Below are positions 2,221-38,653 of a stretch of DNA of 64,000 nucleotides, one piece after another (the stretch's first letter is position 1; each line of letters opens with the position of its first letter). Source of the stretch: Candidatus Anoxymicrobiaceae bacterium (lineage in GTDB: Bacteria > Actinomycetota > Geothermincolia > Fen-727 > Anoxymicrobiaceae). Location of the stretch: contig DAIUEJ010000005.1 in assembly GCA_036845225.1 (NCBI GenBank), forward strand, positions 10,808 through 74,807, in the 5' to 3' direction. Made by a program: the position numbers and the translations under genes. The notes under the pieces were generated by a model, which was not told the DNA's origin, did not search any database, and saw only the letters and a program-made list of their open reading frames with translations.

Positions 2221-2281
2221 CTTTCAACCTCCCTGCCGTGCCGCTTCAAAATAGCATACCACGACACGCCGGGAGGCACGC

Positions 2282-2620: not shown

Positions 2621-2638
2621 CAGTCCTCCACTATCGGC

Positions 2639-4195: not shown

Positions 4196-4246
4196 GCCCG
4201 TCTGACCCCCGTTCGCAGACCGTGTCTCATGAACTCAGGTTAGAAG

Positions 4247-4292
4247 GGCGATGTTTCGTGACGGTTTCACGAATGTAAAATGTAGGTAACAG
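4247..4292 (-). promoter_or_regulatory. Putative nitrogen-regulator (GlnR-type) operator upstream of amtB: GTTAC-n6-TTTAC-n6-GAAAC-n6-GAAAC, followed by ATCGCC
   Basis: Minus strand reads tGTTACctacatTTTACattcgtGAAACcgtcacGAAACATCGCC. The same GAAAC-n6-GAAACATCGCC core occurs upstream of glnA (37883-37917). Confidence 0.45.
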
Positions 4293-4360: not shown

Positions 4361-4423
4361 GAGGCGTTCCCGGTGGGTGCTTTCGGGCGCGTTGCTTCTC
4401 TACGGCGTCTGTGACGCCCATCA

Positions 4424-5242
4424 GTGCCTTCTCGAGTGCCGCCCCGTAGCCCGCGCCGACTGCTCCATGAACAGCCCCCTGCGAGCGCCCTCAGGGCGCG
4501 TGCTACGCGATGCGGGGTCAAGGGCTCCGGGGTCCGGCTCGCACTCGGCGCCCAGCAGTCTTCCCCAGTAATACGGGGTTGTGAGCTCTACTTCCGAGGG
4601 GATGCCGCCTTCGCCTCACCGGGCGTCTACGAATACCTGGAGCAGAACCACATCCTCTACGCCACCAGACTTCCCGCAAACCAGGTACTCTCCAGGGATA
4701 TAGAGCACCTCATGACCAGGCCGGTGGGAAGACCTCCCAAGAGACCAAGGGTTTTCTACCATGACTTCTCCTACCAGGCCACCTCCTGGAGCACGCCCAG
4801 GAGGGTGATTGCGAAGGTGGAGTGGCACGCAGGTGAGCTGTTCCCGAGGGTTGGCTTTATCGTGACCAACATGACCGCGAAAGCCAAGAACGTGGTGAGG
4901 TTCTACAACAAGCGCGGCAACTGCGAGCAGTGGATAAAGGAAGGGAAACGCACCCTTACCTGGACCAGGTTATCCTGCACCAGGTTCTCCTCCAACCAGG
5001 TGAGGCTCGCGCTGTTCGTCCTGGCGTACAACATGGGAAACTTCCTCCGCCGTTTCGCCCTTCCGAGTCAGGTCTCGCACTGGTCGCTATCCAGCATCCA
5101 GCTCAAGCTCATAAAGATTGGAGCAAAGGTGATGAGCCATTCGAGGAGGACGATCTTCCAGATGGCGGAGGTCGCCGTCCCTGAGGCGCTATTCGCCGCT
5201 CTCCTGGAGCGTATACGTTGCCTGGTCGCCGCGCCGACTTGA
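4424..5242 (+). pseudogene. IS1380-family DDE transposase, N-terminally truncated remnant (C-terminal ~215 aa only)
   Basis: Motifs RVIAKVEWHAGELFPRVGFIVTNM...FYNKRGNCEQWIKEGKRTLTWTRLSCTRFSSNQVRLALFVLAYNMGNFLRR match the IS1380-family C-terminus. The N-terminal ~60 residues of the ORF are non-homologous read-through, and no N-terminal transposase half is present. Confidence 0.7.
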
Positions 5243-5358
5243 TAGGCACAGAGGTTGTTCACATGAACGCAGAGATAACGGTCAATGGTCCTCAATCGTC
5301 ATCGAAGACGGGCTCGACAGGCAGGCGGTAACTTCGAGAAAGAGAGACGAGGGCGAGA

Positions 5359-5637
5359 TTGCGCCTCGGTAATCGGCTTCAAGGGGGTATAATGATGGCG
5401 TCGGCGGCTGGAAATGGGAAATGTCAGCTGAAAGTAATAGGCCGCTTGAAACCCCCCTTGTTTTCACCAGAAGAAACATGGGAGAAGATTGGGAATGTCG
5501 ACAACGTGGTTTTCCCTACCGGAGCAGTGGTTAGAAATGGCCGTGTCTATATTTACTATGGCGCTGCCGACAAGTTGATTGCCGCGAGATCTGTTGATCT
5601 GGCAGAGCTGTTGACCAAACTCAAGAGAAGCCCGTGA
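5359..5637 (+). pseudogene. Glycoside hydrolase family 130 (GH130), C-terminal fragment only
   Basis: NVVFPTGAVVRNGRVYIYYGAADKLIAARSVDLAELL matches the conserved GH130 C-terminus and is paralogous to the full GH130 gene at 8969-9910. Only ~90 aa are present, directly after the IS remnant. Confidence 0.6.
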
Positions 5638-5641
5638 GACC

Positions 5642-7921: not shown

Positions 7922-7931
7922 AGGGTTAGCT

Positions 7932-8966
7932 ATGCGCATTGCGATGCTCTCTCCGATTGCTTGGCGCACGCCGCCGCAACATTACGGCCCGTGGGAAAGC
8001 GTGGTCTCCCTTTTGACCGAGGGGCTGGTCTCGCGCGGCTATGATGTTACCCTCTTTGCGACCGGTGATTCGCAAACAAGCGGCAAGCTCCATGCCGTTT
8101 GCGCGCGGGGCTATGAAGAAGACCTCTCCATTATGCCAAAAGTATGGGAGGGCCTGCACATTTCGGAACTCTTCGAGCATGCTGAAGATTTCGATATTAT
8201 CCATAACAATTTTGACTTTCTACCTCTGACATACACCGGCCTTACCACCACCCCGGTCGTTACTACTATTCACGGCTTTTCATCGCCCGGGATTTTGCCG
8301 GTTTACAAGAAATACAACGGCAAGGTGTTCTATGTTTCCATCAGCGATGCCGACCGGTCGCCGGATCTGGACTATATCAAAACCATCCATCACGGCATAG
8401 ATATAAAGCAGTTTGATTTTCAGCCTGAACCGGACGATTATCTGCTCTTTTTCGGGCGCATTCACCATGACAAGGGTGCCAGAGAGGCCATTGAAATTGC
8501 CAGGGCTTGCAATAAAAAGCTGATATTGGCGGGAATCATCCAGGATGAAGCCTACTATCACCAGCACATCGAACCGCACCTGGACAACGACAATGCGGTT
8601 TATGTCGGCAGCACCGGGCCGGTTCAGCGCAACCGGCTGCTTGGCAAGGCATGCGCGCTTCTGCATCCCATAAATTTCAATGAGCCTTTCGGCCTGGCCG
8701 TTATCGAGTCCATGGCCTGCGGCACTCCTGTAATCGCCTTTAACAGGGGTAGCATGCCCGAACTTATAGAAAACGGCAAGAACGGTCTTCTCGTAAAAAC
8801 AGTGGATGAGGCAATAGGGGCTGTTGCACGCATAAAAGATATTGACCGGGTATGCTGCCGCCGCCGTGTTGAACAGCATTTCACGGTCGATCGTATGGTT
8901 GAAGAATATATTCAGGTCTATGAAACGGTTCTCGAAAAAACGAAAAGAGAGGACCACCGACACTGA
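7932..8966 (+). CDS. GT4 family glycosyltransferase (group 1)
   Basis: 344 aa: MRIAMLSPIAW...EPFGLAVIESMACGTPVIAFNRGSMPELIENGKNGLLV, the canonical GT4 C-terminal domain. Confidence 0.8.
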   Translation: MRIAMLSPIAWRTPPQHYGPWESVVSLLTEGLVSRGYDVTLFATGDSQTSGKLHAVCARGYEEDLSIMPKVWEGLHISELFEHAEDFDIIHNNFDFLPLTYTGLTTTPVVTTIHGFSSPGILPVYKKYNGKVFYVSISDADRSPDLDYIKTIHHGIDIKQFDFQPEPDDYLLFFGRIHHDKGAREAIEIARACNKKLILAGIIQDEAYYHQHIEPHLDNDNAVYVGSTGPVQRNRLLGKACALLHPINFNEPFGLAVIESMACGTPVIAFNRGSMPELIENGKNGLLVKTVDEAIGAVARIKDIDRVCCRRRVEQHFTVDRMVEEYIQVYETVLEKTKREDHRH

Positions 8967-8968
8967 CT

Positions 8969-9910
8969 ATGACTACTCAATATCCCATTATAAAACGTTA
9001 TAAAATAAATCCCATTCTCACAAAAGATGATGTCCCCTACCCTGTAGCCACGGTCCACAATGCCGGCATAGTCAGGCATGGCGGCCGCTACATTATGCTG
9101 TTCAGGTCGCACCGTTACAACGGACGCTCCATCATCGGCAGGGCCGACAGCGATGATGGTTTTTCCTTCACTGTCCATCCCAAACCCTTTCTCATACCTG
9201 CAAAGGACAACATGTTTGCAGAATATGAAGAGTTCGGAGTCGAGGACCTGAGAATCTGCCCGGTAGAGGACGACTACCTGCTTACCTACAGCGCGTATTC
9301 CCGTCACGGCGTTCGGACTGCCCTTGCGCGCACCAGAGATTTTGAAAAAGTTGAACGCATTGCGCTTATAACCCAGGCCGACCTTCGCAACGTCGTCATT
9401 TTCCCTGTAAAGTTCGGTGGCAGGTATGCGCGTCTTGACCGGCCACATTCCGAAATTTCACCCTGGTCTATCTGGATTTCCTATTCCCCCGACCTGGTTC
9501 ACTGGGGTGATTCACGGGTGATTATGAAGCCGGTTCCCTATCATTGGGATGGAATGAAAATCGGTCCCGGCGCACCGCCCTTCAAGACCGACAAGGGATG
9601 GCTGCATATTTACCATGGGGTCTTTATGACCATGGCTGGGGCGGTATATCGCCTTGGTGCGGCCCTGCATGACCTTAATGATCCGGCAGAAATCATCGGG
9701 GTTTCCGATCAGTGGATACTGCAGCCCGAGGATCCCTGGGAGGTAAGCGGCTATGTGCCCAATGTTGTTTTTAGCTGCGGCGCTGTTCCTGAAGACGACG
9801 GTACGGTAAAAATATACTGGGGCGGTGCTGATACGGTTATGTGTGCCGGTACGGCAGTGATTGATGACCTTGTACAATTATGTCTTACAAATACCAGGCC
9901 GGCGCTGTAA
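8969..9910 (+). CDS. GH130 family glycoside hydrolase / beta-mannoside phosphorylase-like
   Basis: 313 aa with a GH130 five-bladed propeller profile (ATVHNAGIV, LLTYSAYS, KGWLHIYHGV, NVVFSCGAV...IYWGGADTVMCAGTA). Confidence 0.8.
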   Translation: MTTQYPIIKRYKINPILTKDDVPYPVATVHNAGIVRHGGRYIMLFRSHRYNGRSIIGRADSDDGFSFTVHPKPFLIPAKDNMFAEYEEFGVEDLRICPVEDDYLLTYSAYSRHGVRTALARTRDFEKVERIALITQADLRNVVIFPVKFGGRYARLDRPHSEISPWSIWISYSPDLVHWGDSRVIMKPVPYHWDGMKIGPGAPPFKTDKGWLHIYHGVFMTMAGAVYRLGAALHDLNDPAEIIGVSDQWILQPEDPWEVSGYVPNVVFSCGAVPEDDGTVKIYWGGADTVMCAGTAVIDDLVQLCLTNTRPAL

Positions 9911-10283
9911 AAAAGGTTAAGAGGACCTTGCCAAGAGCAACCTTCTTGGCGTACTCGCTCCGCTCCCTCTCGAGCTCGTCAGGCCCGAGGAGCGTCATGC
10001 ACCAGGCACCCTCGCGATCGGAGCCATCACAAGCAGCGTTGTCGCAACGATCGCGATCGCATAGTGTGCATTCTCACGTAACTGAACACTGATTCTCATC
10101 TTGCTTGAGCACTTCCGGAATTAGAGGATTCGAACCCTCTCCTGTCGTTTTACCCCGATCAATCACTTCGAGGCCAAGACCCTTGTTGCATTTCGATCTC
10201 ATGCTGAAAGAGCCCAGCGGTAAGGCATAACGCTGGACTAGATTGCGCATCCAGTCTTGAAAGTGAATATCGACTGGGGCTCC

Positions 10284-10334
10284 CCCCGGCCCCCCTGAGT
10301 CGAGGGTTCGAATCCCTCCAGCTCCACCACCAAA
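10284..10334 (+). repeat. Partial, inverted copy of the tRNA-Ala 3' half (acceptor/T-arm plus CCA plus 4 nt), forming a 39-bp perfect inverted repeat with the adjacent tRNA-Ala gene
   Basis: 10296-10334 gagtcgagggttcgaatccctccagctccaccaccaaat is the exact reverse complement of 10363-10400. The upstream ggggctcc mimics a tRNA 5' end, but no D-arm or anticodon arm is present. Confidence 0.55.
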
Positions 10335-10365
10335 TATGAAGGGTGGTCAGGAAGAGTGAAGGATT

Positions 10366-10443
10366 TGGTGGTGGAGCTGGAGGGATTCGAACCCTCGACT
10401 TCTACCCTGCCAAGGTAGCGCTCTCCCCCTGAGCTACAGCCCC
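10366..10443 (-). tRNA. tRNA-Ala (anticodon GGC), G3:U70 present, CCA encoded
   Basis: Minus strand reads GGGGCUGUAGCUCAGGGGGAGAGCGCUACCUUGGCAGGGUAGAAGUCGAGGGUUCGAAUCCCUCCAGCUCCACCA. Clean cloverleaf with anticodon loop UUGGCAG. Confidence 0.85.
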
Positions 10444-10494
10444 ACACGGGTGCAAAAGATGCGAGTGTAATGATAACCGTACCTCAGGAGCCGC

Positions 10495-10896
10495 TCAAGA
10501 GCGCCCGGCGGCGCCCGGCTCGCCGGCGTGCTCGTCCCACTCGACTATCGGAACATTGCCCCAGAGGCGCTCGAGGTTGTAGAACTCGCGGTCTTCGTCG
10601 AGGAATATGTGGACGACCACGTCGATATAGTCAAGGAGGATCCAGCGACCGAAGCGTACCCCTTCTCGGCGGACCGGCTTCACTCCGCTCTCCCTCAGCT
10701 CCTCCTCCACCGCGTCCTGAAGTCGCTTGACCTGTCGCTCGTTCCGGCCGCTCGCGATGACGAAGTAGTCCGTGAGCCCGAGCGTATCCCTCATGTCCAT
10801 GATGCGGACGTCGGTTGCTTTCTTGTCGTCTGCCGCCCTCGCGGCAGCGATTGCCAACTGCTCAGCTGTCAGCAACTGATCTGCTCCAGCCTTCAA
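10495..10896 (-). CDS. rsfS: Ribosomal silencing factor RsfS (Iojap family)
   Basis: 133 aa; DYFVIASGRNERQVKRL...WILLDYIDVVVHIF is the RsfS signature. Confidence 0.85.
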   Translation of the reverse strand: MKAGADQLLTAEQLAIAAARAADDKKATDVRIMDMRDTLGLTDYFVIASGRNERQVKRLQDAVEEELRESGVKPVRREGVRFGRWILLDYIDVVVHIFLDEDREFYNLERLWGNVPIVEWDEHAGEPGAAGRS

Positions 10897-10950
10897 ACTC
10901 CCTCGCTTACCGTACCGTGCAAGAAAAAGGTTTGACCCCTATTTTGCAGG

Positions 10951-12261
10951 CTATTTGCTCGCATAGTCTTTCCCGACTATCACGCTGATGTCCGAAAGGG
11001 TCTGGGACTGCGGGTGCGCCTCCAGCTTGCCGACCTCCAGCTCGTTGCGCAGCTCCTGCGCGGCCGCCGTAATGGTCTTGTCGTCGCTGTAGACGATTAT
11101 CAGCGTCTCGGCGTGGTCGAAGTTGTCGGCGTTTGAGGAGTTCACTATCTGGTAGCGCGCCATGTCGATGTCGGCGGCGACCCTCTCCCCTATCCCCGGG
11201 ACTCCGCACCCGTTGAGCACTTCGATCTTCACGCGCTTCGACGAGGGCAGGCTCGAGGACGACTTCAGGTAGGACCTGACGAAAGCTGGAAGCGACTCCT
11301 GGTTCACCCTGTGCACGATCGTCTTCTCGAACCGGAACTCTTTGACCGGGACAATGGCGACCTGCAGGCTCTTTCCGCCGAGGGAGGTGAACGCTTTCGC
11401 GATGCCGGCCAGCTCCTTGTTGGAGGCGTCCGTGTCGAAGAGGTTGCCGTTCTTCGCGACGAACTTGTCGATATCGGTGCCTTTGAGGAGGGCAAGCGCC
11501 TCAGGCGTAAACGCGGCCTGCCGCTTCGCGAGGTCAAGCTCTTTTCCTGATGGAGCATAGGTCATGTAAGAGGCCAGGACGCTCGAAGCCAGGTTCTGCT
11601 TGCCCGCTTTCAGGTCGACGTTGACCCCCAGGCTCGGATCCTTGAACGATATCTTCGATATCCCTGCCACGGGGAAATTGGTGCCGAGCTGATTGAGGAT
11701 GATCCGGACGTCCCGATCGGAGGCGAGGACATACCTGTCCACCTGCGTTCCCAGCATGTTCTCGACGGTCACGAGCGTGCTGCTTATCCTGCCCCCGTCG
11801 AGCTCCACCAGGTTTGACATCTCGTCCGTACCCATGCCCGGGGTGGCCACCAGCAGGTCGGTCGGGAATAAGATCAGGCTGCCTGTCTTTGTCTGCCCGT
11901 CGTAGGACGCGAGGACACACGTGGTCAGGACTGTCGCGCCGTTCTGTTGTTTAGTGACGCCGATGAGGTAGTTGGCGGTCTTCTTGCCTTCCGGAAGGAA
12001 ATCGGAGGCAATCACTTTCTTGGAGGACTTGAACGGCCAGGCGTGCTTGCCGAGCCACGAGAACCCGTGCGTGGTCTTGGTCCACGCCTTGTCGAACGGG
12101 TAGACCTTTACCACGGCGCCCAGCAAGACGAATATCGCGATAAGCACCGCGAGGACCACCAGCCACTTCCAGAGCTTTTTCTTCTTCTTCTTGCTGTCGA
12201 GCCGTTTCCTGGTTCGATATCCTACGTATTCTGCCACGCTCTCCACTTCCCGCCGGGGCAC
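10951..12261 (-). CDS. LCP family protein (LytR-CpsA-Psr) with C-terminal LytR_C domain
   Basis: 436 aa with an N-terminal lysine-rich stretch and TM segment followed by an LCP domain. It sits between nadD and rsfS, as in actinobacterial genomes. Confidence 0.7.
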   Translation of the reverse strand: MPRREVESVAEYVGYRTRKRLDSKKKKKKLWKWLVVLAVLIAIFVLLGAVVKVYPFDKAWTKTTHGFSWLGKHAWPFKSSKKVIASDFLPEGKKTANYLIGVTKQQNGATVLTTCVLASYDGQTKTGSLILFPTDLLVATPGMGTDEMSNLVELDGGRISSTLVTVENMLGTQVDRYVLASDRDVRIILNQLGTNFPVAGISKISFKDPSLGVNVDLKAGKQNLASSVLASYMTYAPSGKELDLAKRQAAFTPEALALLKGTDIDKFVAKNGNLFDTDASNKELAGIAKAFTSLGGKSLQVAIVPVKEFRFEKTIVHRVNQESLPAFVRSYLKSSSSLPSSKRVKIEVLNGCGVPGIGERVAADIDMARYQIVNSSNADNFDHAETLIIVYSDDKTITAAAQELRNELEVGKLEAHPQSQTLSDISVIVGKDYASK

Positions 12262-25593: not shown

Positions 25594-26811
25594 CTACTCC
25601 TTGACGTCATCGAAGTCGAGCGCGTGGTCCATCTTCTCTTTCTTGGTCCTCAGGTAGCGTATATTCTCTGCGCACGGCTCGACCTGCAGGGGCACACGCT
25701 CGGTGACCGACAGGCCATAGCCCTCGAGCCCCACCCTCTTGGCGGGGTTGTTGGTCAGCAGCCTCATGGAGGTGAGCCCGAGGTCCCGCAGGATCTGGGC
25801 GCCCGTCCCGTAGTCCCTGGCGTCGACTGGTAGACCGAGCTCGATGTTGGCCTCCACCGTGTCGAGCCCCATATCCTGGAGCTGGTACGCCTGCAACTTA
25901 TGGGCGAGCCCGATGCCGCGCCCCTCGTGCCCTATGATGTAGAGCAGCACGCCTTCGCCGGCCTCGTCGATCATGCGCATCGCCTCCCTGACCTGCGTCC
26001 CGCAGTCGCACCTGGTGGAACTGAAGACGTCGCCGGTCAGGCACTCGGAGTGGACACGCACAAGCACGTCCTTCTTCCCGTTGACGTCGCCCTTCACGAG
26101 CGCCAGGTGGAAAGTCTTGTCGACGAGGCTCTCGTACCCGACCGCCCTGAACTCCCCGTACGTCGTCGGGAGCCGGGCCTCCGACACCTGCTTGACCAGG
26201 TGCTCGGAGCCGATTCGGTGCTTGATGAGTTCTTCCACAGTGATCATCTTGAGCCCGAACTTCCTGGCGAACTTCTCGAGCTCCGGGACGCGGGCCATCG
26301 TGCCGTCCTCGTGCATGATCTCGCAGATCACGCCGGCCGGGAAATGCCCCGCCAGCCGCGCGAGGTCGACGGCCGCCTCCGTGTGCCCCGCGCGCATCAG
26401 GACGCCGCCCTCACGCGCCCTCAAAGGGAACACGTGTCCGGGCTTGCTGATGTCCGCCGCGGTCGTCTCCGGGTTGATCACAGCCTGGACCGTCGCCGAC
26501 CTGTCGTAGGCGGATATGCCGGTTGTGATCTTTCCCTTGGCGCCGATCGATACCGTGAACGCGGTGCCCTGCGCGCTCGTGTTGTCTTCGACCATGGCAG
26601 GGATGTCCAGCTCGTCCAGCCGGCTCGCCACGCATGGCATGCAGATCAGGCCGCGCCCGTTCTTGCTCATGAAGTTGATGACGTCCGGCGTCACCATCTG
26701 CGCGGAGCACACCAGGTCACCCTCGTTCTCCCGGTCCTCGTCGTCGACCACGATGATGATGTGGCCTTCCTGCAGCTCTTCGATTGCCTCCTCAATAGTG
26801 CTGAAGGGCAT
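25594..26811 (-). CDS. ribBA: Bifunctional 3,4-dihydroxy-2-butanone-4-phosphate synthase / GTP cyclohydrolase II
   Basis: 405 aa; DHBP synthase N-terminal half (RENEGDLV) and GCH-II C-terminal half (CxxGHE region RCDCGTQ). Confidence 0.9.
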
Positions 26812-26823
26812 CTCAATCTCCTC

Positions 26824-27468
26824 CTATTCACCCTCGCCGAGTATGTATCCACCCCGGGCAAGAGCATCTTCTATGCCTGACTGCCCGCCTCTGCGGGCGA
26901 GAAACGCTTCCACGTACTTCGCGATGATGTCCACCTCTATGTTCACGCTGGCGCCCGGTCTCGCGTCGTCGAGGGTCGTCTCGGCGAGCGTGTGGGGGAT
27001 GATCGAGACCGAGAACCCACCCTGGCGGGCGTCGACCACCGTCAGGCTGATCCCGTCCACCGTCACGGACCCCCTGGGCACGATGTACCTTGCCACGTCG
27101 CTGTCGACCGCGATGTCGAATAAGACCGCGTTGCCCTGGTGTTTGCGGGAGCGCACGGTCCCTACGCCGTCCACGTGGCCGTTCACGATGTGCCCCCCCA
27201 GGCGCCCGTCAGCCTGCAACGCCCTCTCCAGGTTGACGGCGGCGCCCGGCCGCAGCGAGCCGAGGATGCTTCTCGCCAGGGTCTCCTGCATGACATCGAC
27301 CGTGAACGACGAACCGTCCATGTCGACCACCGTCAGGCAGACGCCCGAGACCGCTATCGACTCGCCCACGCTGGTCCCCTCGAGCACGCGTTTCGCCGCG
27401 ACCTTGAGCGCCCCGGCGGGCGTCAGCTCCATGACCTTGCCTCTCTCCTCGATAATGCCGGTGAACAT
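26824..27468 (-). CDS. ribE: Riboflavin synthase alpha subunit
   Basis: MFTGIIEERGKV... with the two lumazine-binding repeats; 214 aa. Confidence 0.9.
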   Translation of the reverse strand: MFTGIIEERGKVMELTPAGALKVAAKRVLEGTSVGESIAVSGVCLTVVDMDGSSFTVDVMQETLARSILGSLRPGAAVNLERALQADGRLGGHIVNGHVDGVGTVRSRKHQGNAVLFDIAVDSDVARYIVPRGSVTVDGISLTVVDARQGGFSVSIIPHTLAETTLDDARPGASVNIEVDIIAKYVEAFLARRGGQSGIEDALARGGYILGEGE

Positions 27469-27472
27469 GCGA

Positions 27473-28624
27473 TCATCCTCCGGATGGATATGCGGTTATC
27501 TTCAGGTCGGAGCCGATAGCCTGGACCGTGAATATCTCCACTCCACGTACCAGTGACATGGTTTCCACGCCTTCTCCGGCGACCGGCCCGGGGGCCGACG
27601 ACCCCCCTATCACTTTCGGGGCGAGGTACAAGACCAGCCTGTCCACCAGCCCTGCCTCCCACAGCGACGCCGCCATGGTCGGCCCGCCTTCGGCGAGCAC
27701 GCTCGTGAGGCCGCGGCGGCCGAGGGCTTCGAGAAGGACGTCCAGCTCGACCCGCTCGGCGGCCCCCGCCTCCAGTATCTCAACGCCCTTCTTCTCCAGG
27801 GCGCCGCGGTCAGTGGCAGCAGCATGAGCCGTGACCGCAACGAGGGTCGGGGCCTCGGAGGTGTCCGCCAGCTTGCTTTGAAGGGGAGTCCTCGCGAGGC
27901 TGTCGGCCACGACGCGGAGGGGCTGGCGGGCCGCCCGTATTCCTCTCGCGGTCAGTTGCGGGTCGTCCGCGAGGACGGTCCCGAACCCAACCATGACCGC
28001 GTCGCTCTCCGCCCGCATCCTGTGCACGTCGGACCTGGACGCATCTGAGGTGACCCACCTCGACTCGCCGGTCCTTGTCGCTACTTTGCCGTCCAGGCTC
28101 ATCGCCATCTTCAGAGTCACAAAAGGCCGGCCGGTGGTGATCCACTTTATGTACGGCTCGTTCTGACGCACCGCGATGTCGCGGTACGGCCCCATCGCTA
28201 CCTCGATATCGGCTTCCGACAGCACCCTCATCCCCGCTCCGGCGACAAGGGGGTTCGGGTCCTTCATGGCGATGACGACCCTGGCCGGGGCTGCCTCGAC
28301 GAGGAGCGGGGCGCAGGGGGGCGTCCTTCCATGGTGCGAGCACGGCTCGAGCGTCAGGTAGATCGTGGCGCCCTTCACCCTGTCCCCCGCCTCCTCGACC
28401 GCCCTGACCTCCGCGTGAGGCCCTCCCGCGCGCTGGTGGAAGCCCTCTCCGACGACCTTGCCTCCCGAGACGACCACCGCCCCTACCATGGGGTTCGGGG
28501 ACGTGGTCCCGCGACCCAGCTCGGCGAGCTCGAGGGCGCGCAGCATGTGCAGCTCGTCGTCGCTCCCCGGAAGCGGCTTCGGCAGGCCCGCTATTGTTTC
28601 TGTTCCGCTCGAGATCAGTCTCAT
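27473..28624 (-). CDS. ribD: Bifunctional diaminohydroxyphosphoribosylaminopyrimidine deaminase / 5-amino-6-(5-phosphoribosylamino)uracil reductase
   Basis: CMP/dCMP deaminase zinc motif (HAEVRA...PCSHHG) plus RibD C-terminal reductase domain. Confidence 0.9.
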   Translation of the reverse strand: MRLISSGTETIAGLPKPLPGSDDELHMLRALELAELGRGTTSPNPMVGAVVVSGGKVVGEGFHQRAGGPHAEVRAVEEAGDRVKGATIYLTLEPCSHHGRTPPCAPLLVEAAPARVVIAMKDPNPLVAGAGMRVLSEADIEVAMGPYRDIAVRQNEPYIKWITTGRPFVTLKMAMSLDGKVATRTGESRWVTSDASRSDVHRMRAESDAVMVGFGTVLADDPQLTARGIRAARQPLRVVADSLARTPLQSKLADTSEAPTLVAVTAHAAATDRGALEKKGVEILEAGAAERVELDVLLEALGRRGLTSVLAEGGPTMAASLWEAGLVDRLVLYLAPKVIGGSSAPGPVAGEGVETMSLVRGVEIFTVQAIGSDLKITAYPSGG

Positions 28625-28689: not shown

Positions 28690-28810
28690 CAAGATCTTCT
28701 CCCATCCGGACTGTTACCGTCGGCCCCGGAATTTCGCCGGGTCAGCTCTTTCGAGCTCGCGGGCTTTACCGCCGGTCGGGGATTTCACCCTGTCCCGAAG
28801 ACTATATATT
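28690..28810 (-). promoter_or_regulatory. FMN riboswitch (RFN element) in the rib operon leader
   Basis: Minus strand reads CUUCGGGACAGGGUGAAAUCCCCGACCGGCGGUAAAGCCCGCGAGC...GGCGAAAUUCCGGGGCCGACGGUAACAGUCCGGAUGGGAGAAG, matching the conserved RFN cores (GGGUGAAAUUCCC, GACCGGCGGUA, AGUCCGGAUGGGAGA). Confidence 0.85.
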
Positions 28811-31501: not shown

Positions 31502-32266
31502 TCAATACACGTACAGATTGCCGTACGGCCGGTGCGAGAACGGCTCCAGCTTCTTGAAGTCCTCCGGCGCGATGCCGCCGAGGTCCATCTCCGTGTCCGA
31601 AGCGAACTCCGCCAGGAGATCTGAGAGCATCTTGCGGTCGTCGTCATCCACCGGGAACTCTCGCACCTCTCTGCCCAGTTGGTGTTCCTTCAGCTCGCCG
31701 CGCACGTAGATGGTGCCACCGTGCATCCCGGTCCCGAGGTAGCTTCCCGCGACGGGGCCGGGCTCGTCACCCATTCCCAGAAGCACCAGCAGGCCACCGG
31801 CCATGTACTCTCCGAAGAAATCGCCTGCGCGGCCACCCGCGACGATGATGGGCACCTGGTCCTTGTACGACTTCATGTGAATGCCGACCCGGTAGCCCAC
31901 GTTGCCGCCGACGAACACCTTGCCGCCGCGCATCCCGTACCCGATCACGTCACCGGCGTGGCCCTTGACCACTATCTTGCCGCTGTTCATGGTGTTGCCG
32001 ACGCCGTCCTGGGCGTTCTCGTTCACGATGACCGTGGGGCCGTCCATGAAAGCGCCGAGGTCGTTGCCCGGAACACCGTTGATGACGATGCGGACCTTCT
32101 CCCGGAGCCCGTCGGCGATATACCGCTGTCCGTTTACCCCGTCGAGCACGATCTCCGCGCAGCCGTTAGAAGCCAGCTCGCGTATCATGCTGTTCAGTTC
32201 CCTGTAGTAGAGGCCGGCAGCGTCCAGAATCTTGCAGTTGTCGGTCTGCTTAGCGCTCTTTGCCAT
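31502..32266 (-). CDS. Glutamate synthase GXGXG-domain subunit (archaeal-type GltB C-terminal-domain protein)
   Basis: Repeated GxGxG beta-helix motifs (VKGHAGDVIGYGMRGGKVFVGGNVGYRVG). Confidence 0.75.
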   Translation of the reverse strand: MAKSAKQTDNCKILDAAGLYYRELNSMIRELASNGCAEIVLDGVNGQRYIADGLREKVRIVINGVPGNDLGAFMDGPTVIVNENAQDGVGNTMNSGKIVVKGHAGDVIGYGMRGGKVFVGGNVGYRVGIHMKSYKDQVPIIVAGGRAGDFFGEYMAGGLLVLLGMGDEPGPVAGSYLGTGMHGGTIYVRGELKEHQLGREVREFPVDDDDRKMLSDLLAEFASDTEMDLGGIAPEDFKKLEPFSHRPYGNLYVY

Positions 32267-32269
32267 CTC

Positions 32270-33772
32270 CTACCTTCCCGCCGGTTTCACGCCGATTATC
32301 TCGGTCGTGCTCGCGTCCAGCCCCAGCGAGCGCAGGCGCTCCCTGTTTCCCCTGAGTGATTCTATTGCGTTTACCCCCAGCGCGCCCAGGATCTCCTTGA
32401 GCTCGAGGCTCCAGGAGTTGACCAGGTTGACCAGACGCTCGGCGCCCCAGTCCGGGTCGAGCCTGCCGGTCAGCTCGGGGCGCTGGGTGGCGATGCCCCA
32501 CGAGCAGTTGCCGGTGTAGCATTTCTGGCACAGCCTGCATCCGAGCGCTATCAGGGCCGCGGTGCCGATGCCTACCGCGTCCGCCCCGAGCGCTATCGCC
32601 TTGGCGACGTCCGCGCTCGACCTTATGCCGCCCGCCGCGATTATAGACACCCAGTTCCTGATGCCTTCGCTCCGCAGTTGCTGGTCGACCACCGCCAGCG
32701 CTATCTCGAGCGGGATCCCCACGTGGTCCCGGATGACCGCCGGGCTCGCGCCCGTGCCACCCCTGAAGCCGTCCAGGTAGATGATGTCGGCCCCCGCCCT
32801 GGCGATGCCGCTCGCGATGGCCGCGACGTTGTGGACGGTCGCGATCTTCACGGAGACCGGCTTGTACCCGGTCGCCTCCTTCAGCGCGTAGATCAACTGC
32901 CTCAGGTCTTCTATCGAGTAGATGTCGTGGTGCGGCGCAGGGCTCAGCGCGTCGGTGCCCTCGGGTATCATGCGCGTCCCGGAGACCTCGACCCCTATCT
33001 TCTCGCCCGGGAGGTGCCCGCCGATGCCCGGCTTGGCGCCCTGCCCGACCTTGATCTCGACCGCGACCCCCGCGTTGAGGTACTCGGAGTGCACCCCGAA
33101 CCTGCCGGAAGCACACTGTACGATGATGTGGTCCTTGTACGGGTAGAGCTCTCTGTGCAGCCCTCCCTCTCCGGTGTTCATGACCGTCCCGAGCTTCTCC
33201 GCCGCGATGGCGAGCGCCCGGTGGGTGTTCAGGCTCACCGAGCCGTAGGACATGCCGCTGAACATTATCGGTATGTCCAGCTTGATGTTGTTCGCCACCT
33301 TTGTCTCCAGCCGGAACTCTCCGTTCGACCTCTCGACCTTCAGGCTATCGGGCTTGCGCCCGAGGTAGGTCCTGAGCTCCATCGGCTCGCGCAGCGGGTC
33401 GATGGACGGGTTGGTCACCTGGCAGGCGTCGATGAGCAGGTGGTCGAATACGTTCAGCCACGGCAGGTCGTTGCCCATGCCGGTCAGGATCATGCCCGGC
33501 GTCTGGGCCTGCTTCCAGATCGCCTTGCGCTTGTCGACGTCCCAGGAGGAGTGCTCCCGGAAGGCGAGAGGGTTGCGCACTATCGTTATCGCTTCCTCCG
33601 GGCAGAATATCGCGCAGCGGTGGCACGCCACGCACTTGGACGAGTCCGCTGTGGTCATGCTCTGGAAATCGAAGACCCCGAAGCCGCAGTTGAGTATGCA
33701 GCGCTTGCACCTGCGGCAGCGCTCGTGGTCGACGTTGACCAGGAACTCGCTCGTGACCAGGTTGCCCGGCAT
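32270..33772 (-). CDS. Glutamate synthase FMN-binding catalytic subunit (archaeal-type), with N-terminal 2x[4Fe-4S] ferredoxin motif
   Basis: N-terminal CRRCKRCILNCG...CVACHRCAIFCP followed by a GltS FMN/TIM-barrel domain (GAKPGIGGHLPGEKI). Confidence 0.8.
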   Translation of the reverse strand: MPGNLVTSEFLVNVDHERCRRCKRCILNCGFGVFDFQSMTTADSSKCVACHRCAIFCPEEAITIVRNPLAFREHSSWDVDKRKAIWKQAQTPGMILTGMGNDLPWLNVFDHLLIDACQVTNPSIDPLREPMELRTYLGRKPDSLKVERSNGEFRLETKVANNIKLDIPIMFSGMSYGSVSLNTHRALAIAAEKLGTVMNTGEGGLHRELYPYKDHIIVQCASGRFGVHSEYLNAGVAVEIKVGQGAKPGIGGHLPGEKIGVEVSGTRMIPEGTDALSPAPHHDIYSIEDLRQLIYALKEATGYKPVSVKIATVHNVAAIASGIARAGADIIYLDGFRGGTGASPAVIRDHVGIPLEIALAVVDQQLRSEGIRNWVSIIAAGGIRSSADVAKAIALGADAVGIGTAALIALGCRLCQKCYTGNCSWGIATQRPELTGRLDPDWGAERLVNLVNSWSLELKEILGALGVNAIESLRGNRERLRSLGLDASTTEIIGVKPAGR

Positions 33773-34893
33773 CAGACATCACCTTTCAATTTCCCTATCA
33801 CTGGCTGCCCGGCATTGGGAGCCCACACTTTGTCGGGCCGCGGGCATATCTGCCTGATCGCGGCCTCCTCGCTCGCTACGTACAGGAGGTCGTCCTTCCT
33901 CGCGGCGATGAGCGGCCTCAGCTTGATACGGTCGTTCAGACCGAGCATGCCGCGGGAGAAGCCGACGATCACCGCGAACGGCCCGTTGACCAGCGCGCTG
34001 GCGTAGACCATCCGCAGCGACTCGAAGAGCTCTTTCTCGCCCGGGTCCTCGTCGATGTCGATGTCCTTCCAGAACGGCGCGGCCAGGACCTTGCAGGCCA
34101 CTTCCAGCGGGAGGCCGTGCTTGCGTATCAGCAGGTCGAACAGGTACGCCATGACCTCAGTGTCAGTAAGCAACGTGCATTCGTATCCGAACATCTCCAG
34201 GTATCTCTTGTTGATCCCATAGGATGAGATCTCTCCGTTGTGGACGACCGCCCAGTCCAGGATGTTGAACGGGTGCGCGCCGCCCCACCACCCGGGGGTG
34301 TTGGTCGGGAAACGCCCGTGGCCTATCCAGGTGTAAGCCTGGTACTCGGGCAGCTTGAAGAACTCGCCCACGTCCTCGGCGAACCCCACCGCCTTGAAGA
34401 CGCCCATGTTCTTTCCGCTCGAGAACACGAAGGTCCCCGGAACGGTGGTATTGATGGTCATCACCAGGCGGACCATGAAGTCGTCATCGCCCAGGCCCGC
34501 AGCTTCCACCAGCTCGCCGCGCGGCTTTGCGAAGTACCTCCAGAGGATGGGAGCGTTGACGATGGCCGGGGACGGCTGCGTCGGCAGGTCGCCGGCCGCC
34601 GCCACCTCCAGGCTCTCCTCGAGCAGCGACTCGCAGGCGACTTTACCGGCGCTGTCCTCGAACATGATGTGCAGCGCGTAATGGTCCGGGTAGTCGGGGT
34701 AGATCCCGTAGGCCGCGAAGCCGCCCCCCAGCCCGTTGCCACGGTCGTGGATGTTCCGCATGGACTCGATTATCTGGTCTCCGGCCATGAGGTTGCCGTC
34801 CTCGCTCATGATGCCGGAAAGGCCGCAGGCCGCGGGCACCTTGCAGGTATCTACTCTCCACTCCCTGTACTGGTCACCGAATGCCACAATCAC
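33772..34893 (-). CDS. Glutamate synthase class-II glutamine amidotransferase subunit (Ntn hydrolase)
   Basis: CGLSGIM (N-terminal nucleophile Cys region) with a GATase-2 fold sequence. Confidence 0.75.
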   Translation of the reverse strand: MIVAFGDQYREWRVDTCKVPAACGLSGIMSEDGNLMAGDQIIESMRNIHDRGNGLGGGFAAYGIYPDYPDHYALHIMFEDSAGKVACESLLEESLEVAAAGDLPTQPSPAIVNAPILWRYFAKPRGELVEAAGLGDDDFMVRLVMTINTTVPGTFVFSSGKNMGVFKAVGFAEDVGEFFKLPEYQAYTWIGHGRFPTNTPGWWGGAHPFNILDWAVVHNGEISSYGINKRYLEMFGYECTLLTDTEVMAYLFDLLIRKHGLPLEVACKVLAAPFWKDIDIDEDPGEKELFESLRMVYASALVNGPFAVIVGFSRGMLGLNDRIKLRPLIAARKDDLLYVASEEAAIRQICPRPDKVWAPNAGQPVIGKLKGDV

Positions 34894-36398
34894 TCACCCT
34901 TCCCCTTGAAGGTGTCCTTCAAGAGCTCCGCCAGCTCGTCGGAGCCCGGCTCCGCCACCGGCCCCAGGCCGAGTTTCGCCCTGGCCCTTTCGCGCGCCTT
35001 CCCGAGCACGCCCGCATTCTGGAACATCTCGATCCCCTGCCTCGTCTCCGCCGGGCCGAGCCCGCGCTCGAGCGCCATGCGCTTCGCTTCCTTCATCACC
35101 TTGACCATGCCGAAGCTGTTCGGGCACAGCTCGGTGCAGGTGCCGCACTCGAGGCACTTCCAGATGTCCTCACCCGTTATTACGCTCTCGGCCTCGCCGG
35201 CGAGAATGCTCCGGATCACGTCGTGCGGGGCGTAGCTCTCATCCACCTGCGTGACAGGGCAGTCGTTCGAGCAGGACTCGCACTCGACGCAGCGCGCCAT
35301 GGACGCGTAGTCGAACTCCAGTGGGACCAGCTCGCGTATGCGCTTGACCTCACGCCACTTGTCGAAGAACGGCTGCACGTCGATCCTGTGCATGTCGAGG
35401 CCCAGCTCAGCGGGCTCGAACCCCAGGGCGAGCGCCGCCAGTTCGGAGTAGTAGAAGACCGGTATGTTCAAGGTCTCGTGGTGCTTCTTTATCACCATCT
35501 GCTGCGTCTCGAACTGCCCGAAGCACGCCGGGCAGACCACTACGATGGCGTCGGCCCCGAGTTGCTCGAGCTCGAACAGCTTCAAGCGGGCGCTGGCCAT
35601 CGACTCCTCCGGGCTGCCGGAGCGCCCGAGCGCCTCCCCGCAGCACATGAGCTTGGAGTGGTAATCGAGGCTCTCGAGCCCGAGACACTCGGCGAGCCTG
35701 TCGAGCTTGACGGGCCTCGCCGCGTCGTCGAGCCTCACGGTCGGGCCCGGCCTCAGCAACTGGCAGCCGTTGTGCACTCCGACCGTCAGGCCGTCCATCG
35801 GCGCCACGACCTTCCGCGCGATGACGTCAGGCCCTATTTTGTCGTGGAGCACCTCGATCACGTGGTATACGGAGGTGCGGAAGTTGTACTCCAGGCCGAC
35901 TTCCGCGAGACGTTCGGCGACCTCGTTGCGAAGCTCGCTCGAGGCGTGAAAAGCCGCTATCGCCGATCGGAAAGTCGCATAGCACCCGTTGCAGGCCACG
36001 AGCAGGTCCTTGCCTTCCCTCTCGGCGAGCGCCAGGTTGCGCGCGGCGGTCAGGTACCACGCCTTCTCGGAGAGGGTCTCGACCAGGAACTTTTCCGGGC
36101 AGCACGTGAAGCCCTCGATCTCGGAGTACCTCACGCTCAGCCTCTCGAGTAGGAGGCGGAGAGACTTCTCGAGGAATGGATACCTGCCGGGGATGGTGCA
36201 CCCCCAGAAGAACACGTAATCGTCCACTTTCGCCCGTTTCCTTACTCTGCCAGTCGACTTTTCGCATTTTAGCACAGACACCAAACGGGCATACGGGCCC
36301 GTACCTTTACGAAAGCGCATCGGGGACTGCCCGCGCAATGATATCCGTCGAGCTCCATAGCGCCGGCGTCCCCCCGGCATGACACCCGCTCCCCACAA
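34890..36398 (-). CDS. HdrB-like (2x CCG domain) / HdrC-like (2x[4Fe-4S]) fused Fe-S oxidoreductase; start codon uncertain
   Basis: CCG motifs (FTCCPE, LMCCGE; CNGC, CPAC) and C-terminal ferredoxin clusters (CVECESCSNDCP; CLECGTCTELCP). Overlaps the gltB1 start by 4 nt. The N-terminal ~40 aa of the ORF are Arg-rich and may not be real. Confidence 0.65.
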   Translation of the reverse strand: MWGAGVMPGGRRRYGARRISLRGQSPMRFRKGTGPYARLVSVLKCEKSTGRVRKRAKVDDYVFFWGCTIPGRYPFLEKSLRLLLERLSVRYSEIEGFTCCPEKFLVETLSEKAWYLTAARNLALAEREGKDLLVACNGCYATFRSAIAAFHASSELRNEVAERLAEVGLEYNFRTSVYHVIEVLHDKIGPDVIARKVVAPMDGLTVGVHNGCQLLRPGPTVRLDDAARPVKLDRLAECLGLESLDYHSKLMCCGEALGRSGSPEESMASARLKLFELEQLGADAIVVVCPACFGQFETQQMVIKKHHETLNIPVFYYSELAALALGFEPAELGLDMHRIDVQPFFDKWREVKRIRELVPLEFDYASMARCVECESCSNDCPVTQVDESYAPHDVIRSILAGEAESVITGEDIWKCLECGTCTELCPNSFGMVKVMKEAKRMALERGLGPAETRQGIEMFQNAGVLGKARERARAKLGLGPVAEPGSDELAELLKDTFKGKGE

Positions 36399-36446: not shown

Positions 36447-36487
36447 GTCAAAGGAAAGCGCCCCGCCCTTGGTCGGACGGGGCGCGA
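36447..36487 (-). terminator. Intrinsic terminator downstream of glnA
   Basis: Minus strand: GC-rich hairpin gcgccccg...cggggcgc followed by CUUUCCUUU. Confidence 0.5.
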
Positions 36488-36501: not shown

Positions 36502-37839
36502 CTACAGGATCGGCAGGTAGTTATTCAGCTCGTACTCGGTCACCACAGCTCTGTACTTCTCCCACTCGACCTTCTTGTCGGTGATGAGCGAATGGAAGAC
36601 GTGCTCGCCCAGGGACTCCTTCAGCAGCTCGCTGTTCTCGGCGAGCTTGATGGCCTCCCAGAGGTCTTCGGGGAGGCTCTTGATGCCCAGGGACTCGCGC
36701 TCCTCTTCCGGCATCTCGTAGATGTTTCGCTCGATCGGGGCCTCCAGGTCCAGGTCGTCCTCGATCCCTTTCAGGCCGGCGGCCAGCATGACCGAGAAGG
36801 CGAGGTACGGGTTGCATGCCGGGTCGGGCGAGCGGAGCTCGATCCGGGTCGAGTTCTCCTTGCCGGGCTTGTAGGTCGGCACCCTGATGAGGTCGGACCG
36901 GTTGCGCTGCGCCCAGGAAAGGTATACCGGCGCCTCGTAGCCGGGCACCAGCCGCTTGTAGGAGTTCACGAACTGGTTCGTGACCAGGCAGAACTCCTGG
37001 GCGTACTTGAGCAGCCCCGCGATGAAGGCCTTGGCCTCATGTGTGAGGTAGTACTGGTCTTTCGGGTCGAAGAACGCGTTCCTGTCACCTTTGAACAGGG
37101 ACATATGCGTGTGCATCCCGCTTCCGTTCTCATCGGACAGGGGCTTGGGCATGAACGTCGCGTGGACGCCCTGCTTGATCGCAACTTCTTTGACGACGAG
37201 CCTGTAGGTCATGGCATTGTCGGCCATCTGGAGCGCGTCAGTGTAGCGCAGGTCGATCTCGTGCTGGCTCGGCCCGACCTCGTGGTGCGAGTACTCGACG
37301 CCGATGCCCATCTCCTCGAGGGTGAGGACGGTCTCGCGCCTGAGGTCGCTCGCCACGTCAAGCGGAGTGAGGTCGAAATAGCCGCCCCGGTCCAGTGTCA
37401 CCGGCGGGGGCTCGGAGTCCGCGAAGTAGTAGTACTCGAGCTCCGGTCCGACGTAGAAGGTGTATCCGAGCTCCTGCGCCTTCTTCAGGTTGCGCCGCAG
37501 CACGAAGCGCGGGTCGCCCTGGTGGGGGCTCCTGTCAGGCTCGAGGATGTCGCAGAACATCCTCGCAACCGCGCTGTGGCCGCTAGGGCGCCAGGGCAGC
37601 AGGGCGAACGTCGACGGGTCAGGCTGGGCGATCATGTCGCTCTCGTCGATCCTGGCGAAGCCCTGGATGCTCGAGCCGTCGAAGCCCATGCCGTTTTCCA
37701 GTGCCTCCTCGAGCTCTTCCCTGGTTATGGCGAAGCTCTTCAGGAAGCCGAGGATGTCCGTGAACCACAGCCGTATGAACTTCACGTCGTGCTCGCGCAC
37801 CGCTTCCAGAACGTAGTCGTTGTCCGGGCCTGATACCAT
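36502..37839 (-). CDS. glnA: Glutamine synthetase type I
   Basis: 445 aa; GS beta-grasp and catalytic domains (FDGSSI; KPLSDENGSGMHTHMSLF). Confidence 0.9.
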   Translation of the reverse strand: MVSGPDNDYVLEAVREHDVKFIRLWFTDILGFLKSFAITREELEEALENGMGFDGSSIQGFARIDESDMIAQPDPSTFALLPWRPSGHSAVARMFCDILEPDRSPHQGDPRFVLRRNLKKAQELGYTFYVGPELEYYYFADSEPPPVTLDRGGYFDLTPLDVASDLRRETVLTLEEMGIGVEYSHHEVGPSQHEIDLRYTDALQMADNAMTYRLVVKEVAIKQGVHATFMPKPLSDENGSGMHTHMSLFKGDRNAFFDPKDQYYLTHEAKAFIAGLLKYAQEFCLVTNQFVNSYKRLVPGYEAPVYLSWAQRNRSDLIRVPTYKPGKENSTRIELRSPDPACNPYLAFSVMLAAGLKGIEDDLDLEAPIERNIYEMPEEERESLGIKSLPEDLWEAIKLAENSELLKESLGEHVFHSLITDKKVEWEKYRAVVTEYELNNYLPIL

Positions 37840-37882
37840 AGTTCCTCCTTATCAGCGTTGCCTTTCCACGCAATTGTAGAGA

Positions 37883-37917
37883 GGCGATGTTTCCAAAATG
37901 TTTCATAGCCGTGAAAT
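37883..37917 (-). promoter_or_regulatory. Putative nitrogen-regulator operator upstream of glnA (TTCAC-n6-GAAAC-n6-GAAACATCGCC)
   Basis: Minus strand reads aTTTCACggctatGAAACattttgGAAACATCGCC; it shares the GAAAC-n6-GAAACATCGCC core with the amtB upstream site. Confidence 0.45.
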
Positions 37918-37981
37918 AGTTGTAAATCAGCCGGACGGGAGCGGACCCGGCTCGAGGAACAATGGCCGGGGTCCCTCGCCG

Positions 37982-38653
37982 CTACTTGCCGGTGAACCGG
38001 TAGCCTACTCCGTGGACCGTCTCTATGTACTGGCGAGAGGTCTCGATCTTCGCCCGCAGGCGCCGGATGTGGACGTCCACCGTCCTCGTCCCGCCAAAGT
38101 AGTCGTATCCCCAGATGCTCTTCAGCAGTTCTTCCCTGGTGTACGCGCGGCCCGGGGTCGCCGCCAGCATCTTGAGGAGTTCGTACTCCTTGTACGTCAG
38201 GTCCAGCGGCTTGCCGGCGAGCACGACCTGGTGCGCGTCCATGTTGATGACCAGGTCGTCAAAGGCCATCACGTTGCCTTCCCTGCCTCTCCTGATGCCC
38301 ATGATCCGCACCCGTGATACGACCTCCAGTGCCGTTCCGGGGCTGACCACGAAATCATCGAAGTATTTGAGCGTCTCAATTTCGGAGAGGAGCCCGGCAT
38401 CCCTCAGTGCGGCCATCAGTGGGATCCTGGAAGCCCAACCGCCGACCTTCTGCATGGCGTTCCTGGCGGCGCGGGCCTGGTGAACGTGCGGGCTCACGAT
38501 GAGGACCGCGGCGAAGCTGTCGTCCAGCACCGTCTCCAGGTCATCTGATTTTTCAAAGCCCAGGACGGTGAGCCCGAGGTCCCTCAGCCCCTCCTCGAGG
38601 GACGCGGAGTAATCGGACCCGTCGCCGCAGAAGGCTATGCTCTCGTCGTTCAC
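37982..38653 (-). CDS. OmpR-family winged-helix response regulator with atypical receiver domain (GlnR-like candidate nitrogen regulator)
   Basis: C-terminal trans_reg_C (LTYKEYELLKMLAATPGRAYTREELLKSIWGYDYFGGTRTVDVHIRRLRAKI...GVGYRF). The N-terminal receiver lacks an obvious cognate kinase nearby. It is adjacent to glnA. Confidence 0.6.
   Translation of the reverse strand: MNDESIAFCGDGSDYSASLEEGLRDLGLTVLGFEKSDDLETVLDDSFAAVLIVSPHVHQARAARNAMQKVGGWASRIPLMAALRDAGLLSEIETLKYFDDFVVSPGTALEVVSRVRIMGIRRGREGNVMAFDDLVINMDAHQVVLAGKPLDLTYKEYELLKMLAATPGRAYTREELLKSIWGYDYFGGTRTVDVHIRRLRAKIETSRQYIETVHGVGYRFTGK

Follow-up and report, generated by a model that had tools for sequence, protein, structure and literature searches.

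The DNA immediately upstream of glnA in the window, the 64,000-nucleotide stretch of a Candidatus Anoxymicrobiaceae genome analysed here, probably constitutes a GlnR-type, activator-dependent promoter, with the GlnR-like protein encoded next to it as the probable binder. The assignment follows from agreement with the published system in repeat unit, site number, strand and target genes and, relative to a predicted −10 hexamer, in geometry. Judged from its sequence, the cis-element has the repeats, the register, the strand and the targets of a GlnR box. The regulator resembles GlnR and probably works like it; since it stays below the threshold of the Pfam GlnR_1st family and lacks the Asp-50 triad of canonical GlnR, we regard the system as a variant of the GlnR system and not as a plain member of it.

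A sequence-only reading of the window had drawn attention to an identical 11-mer, with GAAAC 6 nt upstream of it, at both glnA and amtB, and both copies were found. At glnA, positions 37883..37893 read GGCGATGTTTC on the plus strand, corresponding to GAAACATCGCC on the minus strand; 6 nt upstream of the 11-mer, at 37900..37904 of that strand, there is a second GAAAC, and the minus-strand sequence leading into the open reading frame at 36502..37839 is ...gaTTTACaactatTTCACggctatGAAACattttgGAAACatcgcctctcTACAATtgcgtggaaaggcaacgctgataaggaggaactATG. At amtB, the same 11-mer occupies 4247..4257 and GAAAC 4264..4268, again on the minus strand. The complete motif GAAAC-N6-GAAACATCGCC, spanning 37883..37904 at glnA and 4247..4268 at amtB, both on the minus strand, occurs only these two times in 64 kb and was absent from 100 dinucleotide shuffles, so that the original argument against chance is borne out. 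The simpler pattern GAAAC-N6-GAAAC was matched twice against 0.09 expected, and at least two matches were found in none of the 100 shuffles. For the 11-mer alone, allowing up to one mismatch, four matches against 1.46 expected are not significant, at least four being found in 8 of 100 shuffles. The weight therefore rests on the spaced repeat and its placement, not on the 11-mer. Both copies are on the coding strand of the downstream gene, and each is followed, 10 nt further downstream, by a hexamer of the form TAnnnT. Matches to GAAAC-N6-GAAAC with one mismatch, located at 18.2–18.8 kb, fall inside long open reading frames.

The motif first noticed is the downstream half of a larger, 54-bp element. 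At glnA this element, defined by its sequence, by pattern and position weight matrix (PWM) matches and by conservation, spans 37873..37926 on the minus strand and reads TTTAC-n6-TTCAC-n6-GAAAC-n6-GAAAC-n10-TACAAT. Its companion at amtB, recognised by sequence and pattern and kept in relatives, spans 4237..4290 on the same strand and reads GTTAC-n6-TTTAC-n6-GAAAC-n6-GAAAC-n10-TAACCT. The common architecture is thus four pentamers, (T/G)T(T/A)AC, TT(C/T)AC, GAAAC and GAAAC, separated by 6-nt gaps and followed after 10 nt by a −10-like TAnnnT. A degenerate 54-nt pattern with up to two mismatches matches the glnA and amtB sites and nothing else in the window, and has no match in 100 shuffles. The stretch 37883..37917 originally proposed as the box encloses three of the four repeats and leaves out pentamer 1 and the −10-like hexamer. 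As to the 11-mer being the unit of the motif, its GAAAC part holds; the conserved unit is four pentamers with an 11-bp period, and the ATCGCC tail varies in relatives, where it reads atcgca, atccaa, aacggg, aactga, accttc and others. Of the nucleotides following GAAAC, only an A recurs, joined less consistently by a C two places further on.

Positions relative to the start of transcription were assigned by taking TACAAT as the −10 hexamer. On this basis, pentamer 1 (TTTAC, 37922..37926, minus strand), which resembles an a1 site, is predicted to lie at about −60 to −56, and is TTTAC or TTAAC in 11 of 11 glnA promoters. Pentamer 2 (TTCAC, 37911..37915, minus strand; b1-like), at about −49 to −45, is TTCAC in 10 of 11 relatives and TTTAT in the other. 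The a2-like pentamer 3 (GAAAC, 37900..37904, minus strand) falls at about −38 to −34, in the place of a −35 hexamer, and pentamer 4 (GAAAC, 37889..37893, minus strand; b2-like) at about −27 to −23, downstream of the −35 position; GAAAC is found in 10 of 11 relatives at each, the exceptions being GTAAC and GAAAT, respectively. The TACAAT itself lies at 37873..37878 (minus strand), 10 nt after pentamer 4, and TAnnnT stands at this place in 11 glnA and three amtB promoters. A promoter scan identified no σ70-type −35/−10 pair at the glnA or the amtB promoter, and the hexamer found 16–18 nt before TACAAT bears little resemblance to TTGACA. It had been conceded that the motif might turn out to lie in a transcribed leader, remote from the promoter; by sequence, the box adjoins the predicted −10. 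Altogether, the proposal that the amtB and glnA promoters have a regulator box in common is supported: the element is non-random, phylogenetically conserved, on the coding strand and directly 5′ of a conserved −10-like hexamer. No Rfam family was matched in the glnA or amtB leaders. A hairpin at 37939..37977, between the stop codon of the regulator gene and the box, was considered as a terminator and rejected, being no more stable than shuffled sequences (z = −1.1).

The published GlnR cis-element, gTnAc-n6-GaAAc-n6-GtnAC-n6-GAAAc, consists of 11-nt direct repeats on the coding strand, arranged as two 22-nt boxes (a1-b1-a2-b2), and has glnA and amtB as its core targets (PMC10704036; PMC3561978). 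The A at position 4 of the pentamer is reported to be irreplaceable in GlnR sites (consensus from PMC10704036 and PMC10235972); it is present in eight of the eight pentamers of the glnA and amtB elements. Cryo-EM has revealed four GlnR protomers bound head-to-tail around a non-optimal −35 element, upstream of a good −10; the protomer at b2, downstream of the −35 element, contacts σ region 4 and the β flap, and the upstream protomers touch the α subunit (PMC10235972). GlnR systems of this type are those of Streptomyces coelicolor, Mycobacterium smegmatis, Mycobacterium tuberculosis, Saccharopolyspora erythraea and Amycolatopsis mediterranei. The elements described here share with them the repeat unit, the four sites in a-b-a-b order, the 6-nt gaps, the coding strand and the glnA and amtB targets; taken relative to the predicted −10, the promoter layout would agree as well, with a poor −35, a last site downstream of it and a good −10. 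They differ in their a-sites, which are T-rich (TT(T/A)AC and TTCAC), and in having GAAAC rather than GTnAC at a2.

Homologues of the adjacent regulator, 51–80% identical to it, are found in metagenome assemblies, and the regulator gene directly precedes glnA in 12 of 12 relatives examined; the intergenic DNA was read in 11. Every relative's regulator locus that was retrieved has the order metK-def-fmt-rsmB-(nadE)-regulator-glnA-CCG/Fer4 protein-glutamate synthase domains. All 10 distinct regulator–glnA intergenic regions, down to a regulator identity of 51%, carry the four pentamers and the TAnnnT. Conservation was quantified over 11 distinct relatives, nine of them with fetched regulators of 51–75% identity and one, L092, entered through its AmtB. 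In an ungapped alignment, the pentamers have a relative entropy of 1.61 bits per position and the −10 hexamer one of 1.47; the spacers follow with 0.92, the 10-nt gap with 0.67 and the flanks with 0.22. Conservation sets in sharply with the first pentamer and stops as sharply where the −10 hexamer ends. The length of the 10-nt gap from pentamer 4 to TAnnnT is invariant in the 11 relatives. Conserved, too, are the C in fifth position of the pentamers and the G that opens pentamers 3 and 4. The four pentamers keep a strict 11-bp register at both window promoters, as they do in 14 of 14 related promoters of glnA or amtB. The amtB promoters of two relatives, with AmtB proteins 81% and 73% identical, retain the pentamers and TAnCCT, and their spacers differ. 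In L092, a more distant relative (AmtB 65% identical) in which the gene order is amtB-glnK-[box]-glnA, the box lies between glnK and glnA (L092 4463..4516, plus strand) and reads TTAAC-n6-GTAAC-n6-GAAAA-n6-GAAAC-n10-TAGGAT.

On a PWM constructed from the relatives only, the best-scoring site of the window is that at glnA, with 62 bits, and the next best that at amtB, with 19 bits; the null maximum is 6.6. As a control for specificity, about 600 kb from 80 other, unrelated loci gave a single site above 18 bits, and most of the 80 AmtB loci of other lineages are without such a site. A third match in the window to the four-pentamer PWM, TTCAC-n6-TTCTC-n6-GAAAA-n6-GAAAC at 5959..5996 (plus strand), scored 23.7 bits against a null maximum of 19.9; it lies within the coding region of a GT4 glycosyltransferase in an A+T-rich island, has no TAnnnT at the right distance and is probably due to chance. 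The box type may extend beyond this regulator family. Weaker phased repeats of the form GAAAC/GTAAC-n6-GTAAC-n10-TAnnCT are seen upstream of amtB in three metagenome contigs (AmtB 58–59% identical), and a 19-bit four-pentamer site is seen in an unclassified metagenome-assembled genome (MAG) 365 nt upstream of another GlnR-like regulator gene (L011 3599..3636).

The candidate regulator is a 223-residue protein encoded at 37982..38653 on the minus strand, directly upstream of glnA. In Pfam it matches Trans_reg_C only (E = 1e−28), through a winged-helix domain of OmpR/PhoB type at its C-terminus, with no match to Response_reg. It is the sole OmpR-type protein encoded in the window, and it is an orphan: in the window and in 12 of 12 related loci its neighbours are rsmB (or nadE) and glnA, with no histidine kinase gene adjacent. 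Where public databases name members of the family, from actinomycetotal MAGs, the name is 'response regulator transcription factor' or 'winged-helix domain-containing protein'. When a profile built from 22 members was compared with all PDB sequences, its three best matches were the GlnR structures 8hig (148 bits), 8hih (140 bits) and 8hml (127 bits), followed 20–40 bits lower by RegX3 (107 bits), VicR (105 bits) and MtrA (104 bits). Of these structures, 8hig is GlnR of S. erythraea, 8HIH contains GlnR of M. tuberculosis in a transcription activation complex and 8HML is the S. erythraea DNA-binding domain on DNA (PMC10235972). Comparison by hhalign with ten canonical GlnRs from named actinomycetotal genomes produced a full-length alignment with 35% identity. 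By these profile scores against PDB sequences the regulator is closer to GlnR than to other OmpR-family regulators, and a remote homology to GlnR over the full length is supported. In a profile search of genome contigs, the best match listed is 45% identical and comes from Ca. Geohydrothermomicrobium (class Geothermincolia), those listed being for the most part canonical GlnRs and regulators from Chloroflexota.

In S. erythraea GlnR, bases are contacted by Arg186, Val190, Arg193 and Arg194 (PMC10235972). Their equivalents in the regulator, Arg190, Val194, Arg197 and Arg198, are identical, and they are invariant in all 22 family members. Most of the phosphate contacts are likewise invariant in the family (the equivalents of Thr149, Lys151, Arg169, Trp177, Thr187, His191, Arg196, Thr209 and Tyr215), and two residues of the wing are changed relative to GlnR, Arg211 to His and Asn212 to Gly. 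An AlphaFold model of the regulator (pLDDT 89) consists of a receiver-like α/β domain and a winged helix. Its DNA-binding domain superposes on that of 8hig with a deviation of 1.6 Å and 52% identity. A fold search of the PDB was set aside as a means of identifying GlnR, all OmpR/PhoB regulators scoring alike, and serves only to confirm the two-domain fold and how well the DNA-binding domain fits. The family has a conserved GG-x2-SR-x-P motif. Regulators from Dehalococcoidia and Armatimonadota MAGs share the GlnR motifs T[YF]KE[FY]ELL and GGTRTVDVH, which implies that GlnR-like DNA-binding domains are not confined to Actinomycetota; in two of the Dehalococcoidia proteins an acidic residue is found near the phospho-acceptor position, by eye and in unaligned sequences.

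The likeness to canonical GlnR thus extends to an orphan protein of OmpR/PhoB type with identical contact residues in the recognition helix, and it is weaker in the N-terminal domain. In GlnR, Asp-50 is unphosphorylated and is needed, together with Arg-52 and Thr-9, for homodimerisation (PMC10704036). In the hhalign alignment, the 'VDAR' of GlnR corresponds to 'VSPH' in the regulator, and Asp-50, Arg-52 and Thr-9 are replaced by Ser, His and Cys; each of the 22 family members has Ser or Asn in the place of Asp-50, and the residue after it is always Pro. The domain is remotely similar to GlnR_1st (PF21695) and falls below the Pfam cut-off: against a threshold of 27 bits, the regulator scores 15.4 (E = 0.019) and the best family member 24.8, with 12 of the 22 matching at E < 0.1. 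All ten canonical GlnRs, run as a control, score about 148 bits (148.5 for the one shown), with E-values down to 6e−45. The regulator is also shorter than canonical GlnR, at about 220 residues without a C-terminal tail, and its gene, unlike canonical glnR, is fixed beside glnA.

The targets are themselves well defined. The glnA gene (36502..37839, minus strand) encodes a type I glutamine synthetase, with Pfam Gln-synt_C and Gln-synt_N domains and a score of 513 bits for NCBIfam TIGR00653 (cut-off 429). It is followed by an intrinsic terminator at 36458..36485 (minus strand), with an 11-bp stem containing 10 G–C pairs and then TTTCCTTT; given the strength of this terminator, the glnA promoter probably serves glnA alone. 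The companion element precedes amtB (2639..4195; Pfam Ammonium_transp), the P-II gene glnK (2282..2620; Pfam P-II) and a long, glutamine-dependent NAD synthase gene, nadE (487..2220; Pfam NAD_synthase and CN_hydrolase), all on the minus strand. Gaps of 18 and 61 nt separate the three genes, and amtB-glnK-nadE (487..4195, minus strand) is probably one operon served by the companion element. Two observations link nadE to the regulon. In the window, the long nadE follows amtB-glnK; in relatives whose regulators are 54–60% identical, a short NAD_synthase gene is found directly 5′ of the regulator gene; it runs 4 nt into the start of the latter in two of seven loci and lies 5–53 nt upstream in the others.

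Beyond the glnA terminator lies a split glutamate synthase cluster of four genes (31502..36398, minus strand), encoding a CCG/4Fe-4S protein (34890..36398), a GATase_2 protein (33772..34893), a Glu_synthase FMN-domain protein (32270..33772) and a GXGXG protein (31502..32266). The cluster adjoins glnA in all relatives. In the approximately 230 nt upstream of it we found no GlnR-type box, only a TAAAAT hexamer, and none was found upstream of the regulator gene.

Two further regions of the window were characterised in passing. An FMN riboswitch (28690..28806, minus strand; Rfam RF00050, 110.6 bits) lies ahead of riboflavin genes comprising a ribD-like gene (27473..28624), a lumazine-binding riboflavin synthase gene (26824..27468) and ribBA (25594..26811). 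A low-G+C island at about 4400..12000, with 52–55% G+C against about 63%, starts right beside the amtB promoter. It includes, on the plus strand, a truncated DDE transposase gene (4424..5242), two GT4 glycosyltransferase genes (5642..7921 and 7932..8966) and a GH130 phosphorylase gene (8969..9910), and, on the minus strand, tRNA-Ala(GGC) (10372..10443); the island has the look of DNA gained by horizontal transfer close to a tRNA gene. An ARAGORN 'tmRNA*' call at 9904..10461 overlaps tRNA-Ala(GGC) and is not supported by Rfam.

Other proteins are known to act on the same genes. Those of Bacillus (GlnR and TnrA, of the MerR family) and Corynebacterium (AmtR, of the TetR family) have glnA and amtB as targets and are unrelated to the regulator described here. 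Their operators are palindromic, TGTNAN7TNACA and CTATN6ATAG, respectively. These palindromes are absent from both promoters and are not enriched in the window, and no inverted repeat spans the box, so that an operator of either type was rejected. Closer in kind are the Firmicutes regulators WalR, YycF and VicR, which bind direct hexamer repeats, TGTWAH-n5-TGTWAH, with an 11-bp period. In structural alignments, their DNA-binding domains are 46–53% identical to that of the regulator, compared with 49–52% for GlnR, and they have the same recognition-helix residues, from which it follows that residue conservation alone does not fix specificity. They differ in being essential cell-wall regulators with a cognate kinase, a canonical receiver domain and no link to glnA or amtB, and on the DNA-binding domain alone the family profile scores them about 22 bits lower.

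The OmpR family also contains regulators that meet GlnR at its own promoters. The PHO boxes of PhoP and the sites of MtrA are 11-nt direct repeats that overlap GlnR boxes at glnA and amtB. In Streptomyces, PhoP binds the same glnA and amtB promoter regions as GlnR, and at S. coelicolor glnA the repeats are recognised by PhoP on the opposite strand (PMC3561978); MtrA is reported to bind these regions also, and to repress nitrogen genes through similar sites (PMC9151340). The box could accordingly be used mainly by another OmpR-family regulator encoded outside the window, be it a canonical GlnR or an MtrA- or PhoP-like protein, with the adjacent protein having some other role. Such a reading gains from the missing Asp-50 triad and sub-threshold GlnR_1st score of the adjacent protein, from the similarity of recognition helices across WalR, VicR and GlnR, and from the window presenting 64 kb of the genome. 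We nevertheless consider it unlikely. Ten distinct relatives, with regulators as little as 51% identical, have regulator, box and glnA together, an arrangement that would be hard to explain if regulator and box were unrelated, the GlnR structures lead the sequence matches by 20–40 bits, and there is no further OmpR-type gene within the window. PhoP and MtrA are two-component regulators with a phospho-acceptor Asp and a partner kinase, and the family profile scores them about 40 bits or more below GlnR. The most likely binder, as judged from these sequence comparisons, is still the orphan GlnR-like protein encoded directly upstream of glnA.

A different question is whether the protomers would activate or repress. 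The third and fourth pentamers coincide with the −35 position and part of the spacer, a frequent location of repressor sites, and protomers bound from about −60 to −23 would occlude this region and could switch glnA and amtB off when nitrogen is plentiful, in the manner attributed to MtrA in Streptomyces. We regard this as improbable, more so than the use of the box by a different regulator, because neither promoter has a recognisable −35 and strong activity without an activator is not to be expected. The same geometry, with the last site downstream of the −35, is an activating one in the structure of the GlnR–RNA polymerase complex (PMC10235972), and the upstream pentamers 1 and 2, for which simple occlusion has no need, are as conserved as the downstream pair. 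That no specific regulator is involved, the box being fortuitous or an A+T-rich, UP-like element in a G+C-rich genome, is extremely improbable. The 11-mer alone is not significant, the region is A+T-rich within a genome of 63% G+C, and a further PWM match does occur in an A+T-rich island within a coding region; against this stand the absence of the spaced pattern from 100 shuffles, the conserved C in fifth position of the pentamers and initial G of pentamers 3 and 4, a register held strictly at 11 bp and sharp limits of conservation across 11 relatives, and the recurrence of the same architecture at two functionally linked operons.

We therefore retain the activator-dependent promoter as the best explanation; activation, the transcription start and the nitrogen signal are what we infer, the −10 hexamer and the start being predictions. 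Four direct 5-nt repeats (nTnAC/GAAAC) on the coding strand would, by virtue of their 11-bp period, all face the same side of the helix between about −60 and −23, the third taking the place of the missing −35 hexamer and the fourth lying between the −35 and −10 positions. Bound there head-to-tail, four OmpR-family protomers would bring RNA polymerase to the conserved −10 hexamer and turn glnA on, and under nitrogen scarcity the twin element would activate amtB-glnK-nadE likewise.

GlnR boxes at glnA and amtB in an actinobacterium are of a kind already known and would not surprise a specialist. A bolder reading, to which we attach limited credence, is that the regulator represents a distinct family, sister to GlnR and hitherto unannotated, of uncultured Actinomycetota that probably branch deeply, one that assembles on the four-site box and senses nitrogen unlike canonical GlnR. 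The loss of the Asp-50/Arg-52/Thr-9 dimerisation triad, together with a gene locked between rsmB or nadE and glnA, would point to such a different mechanism, in which the pseudo-receiver might respond, for instance, to a ligand or to a partner of P-II type.

The analysis places what is probably a textbook actinobacterial nitrogen switch, with four GlnR sites in lieu of a −35 at both glnA and amtB, in a lineage that is uncultured and has been met in metagenomes only, and ties it to a concrete and conserved candidate regulator. The PWM is ready for use in predicting the nitrogen regulon in MAGs of this lineage. The interest of the finding is modest and lies in this regulon model and in an Asp-less, glnA-linked regulator family of uncultured lineages, whose receiver-like domain is a natural variant that could help to explain how orphan GlnR proteins oligomerise and are controlled.
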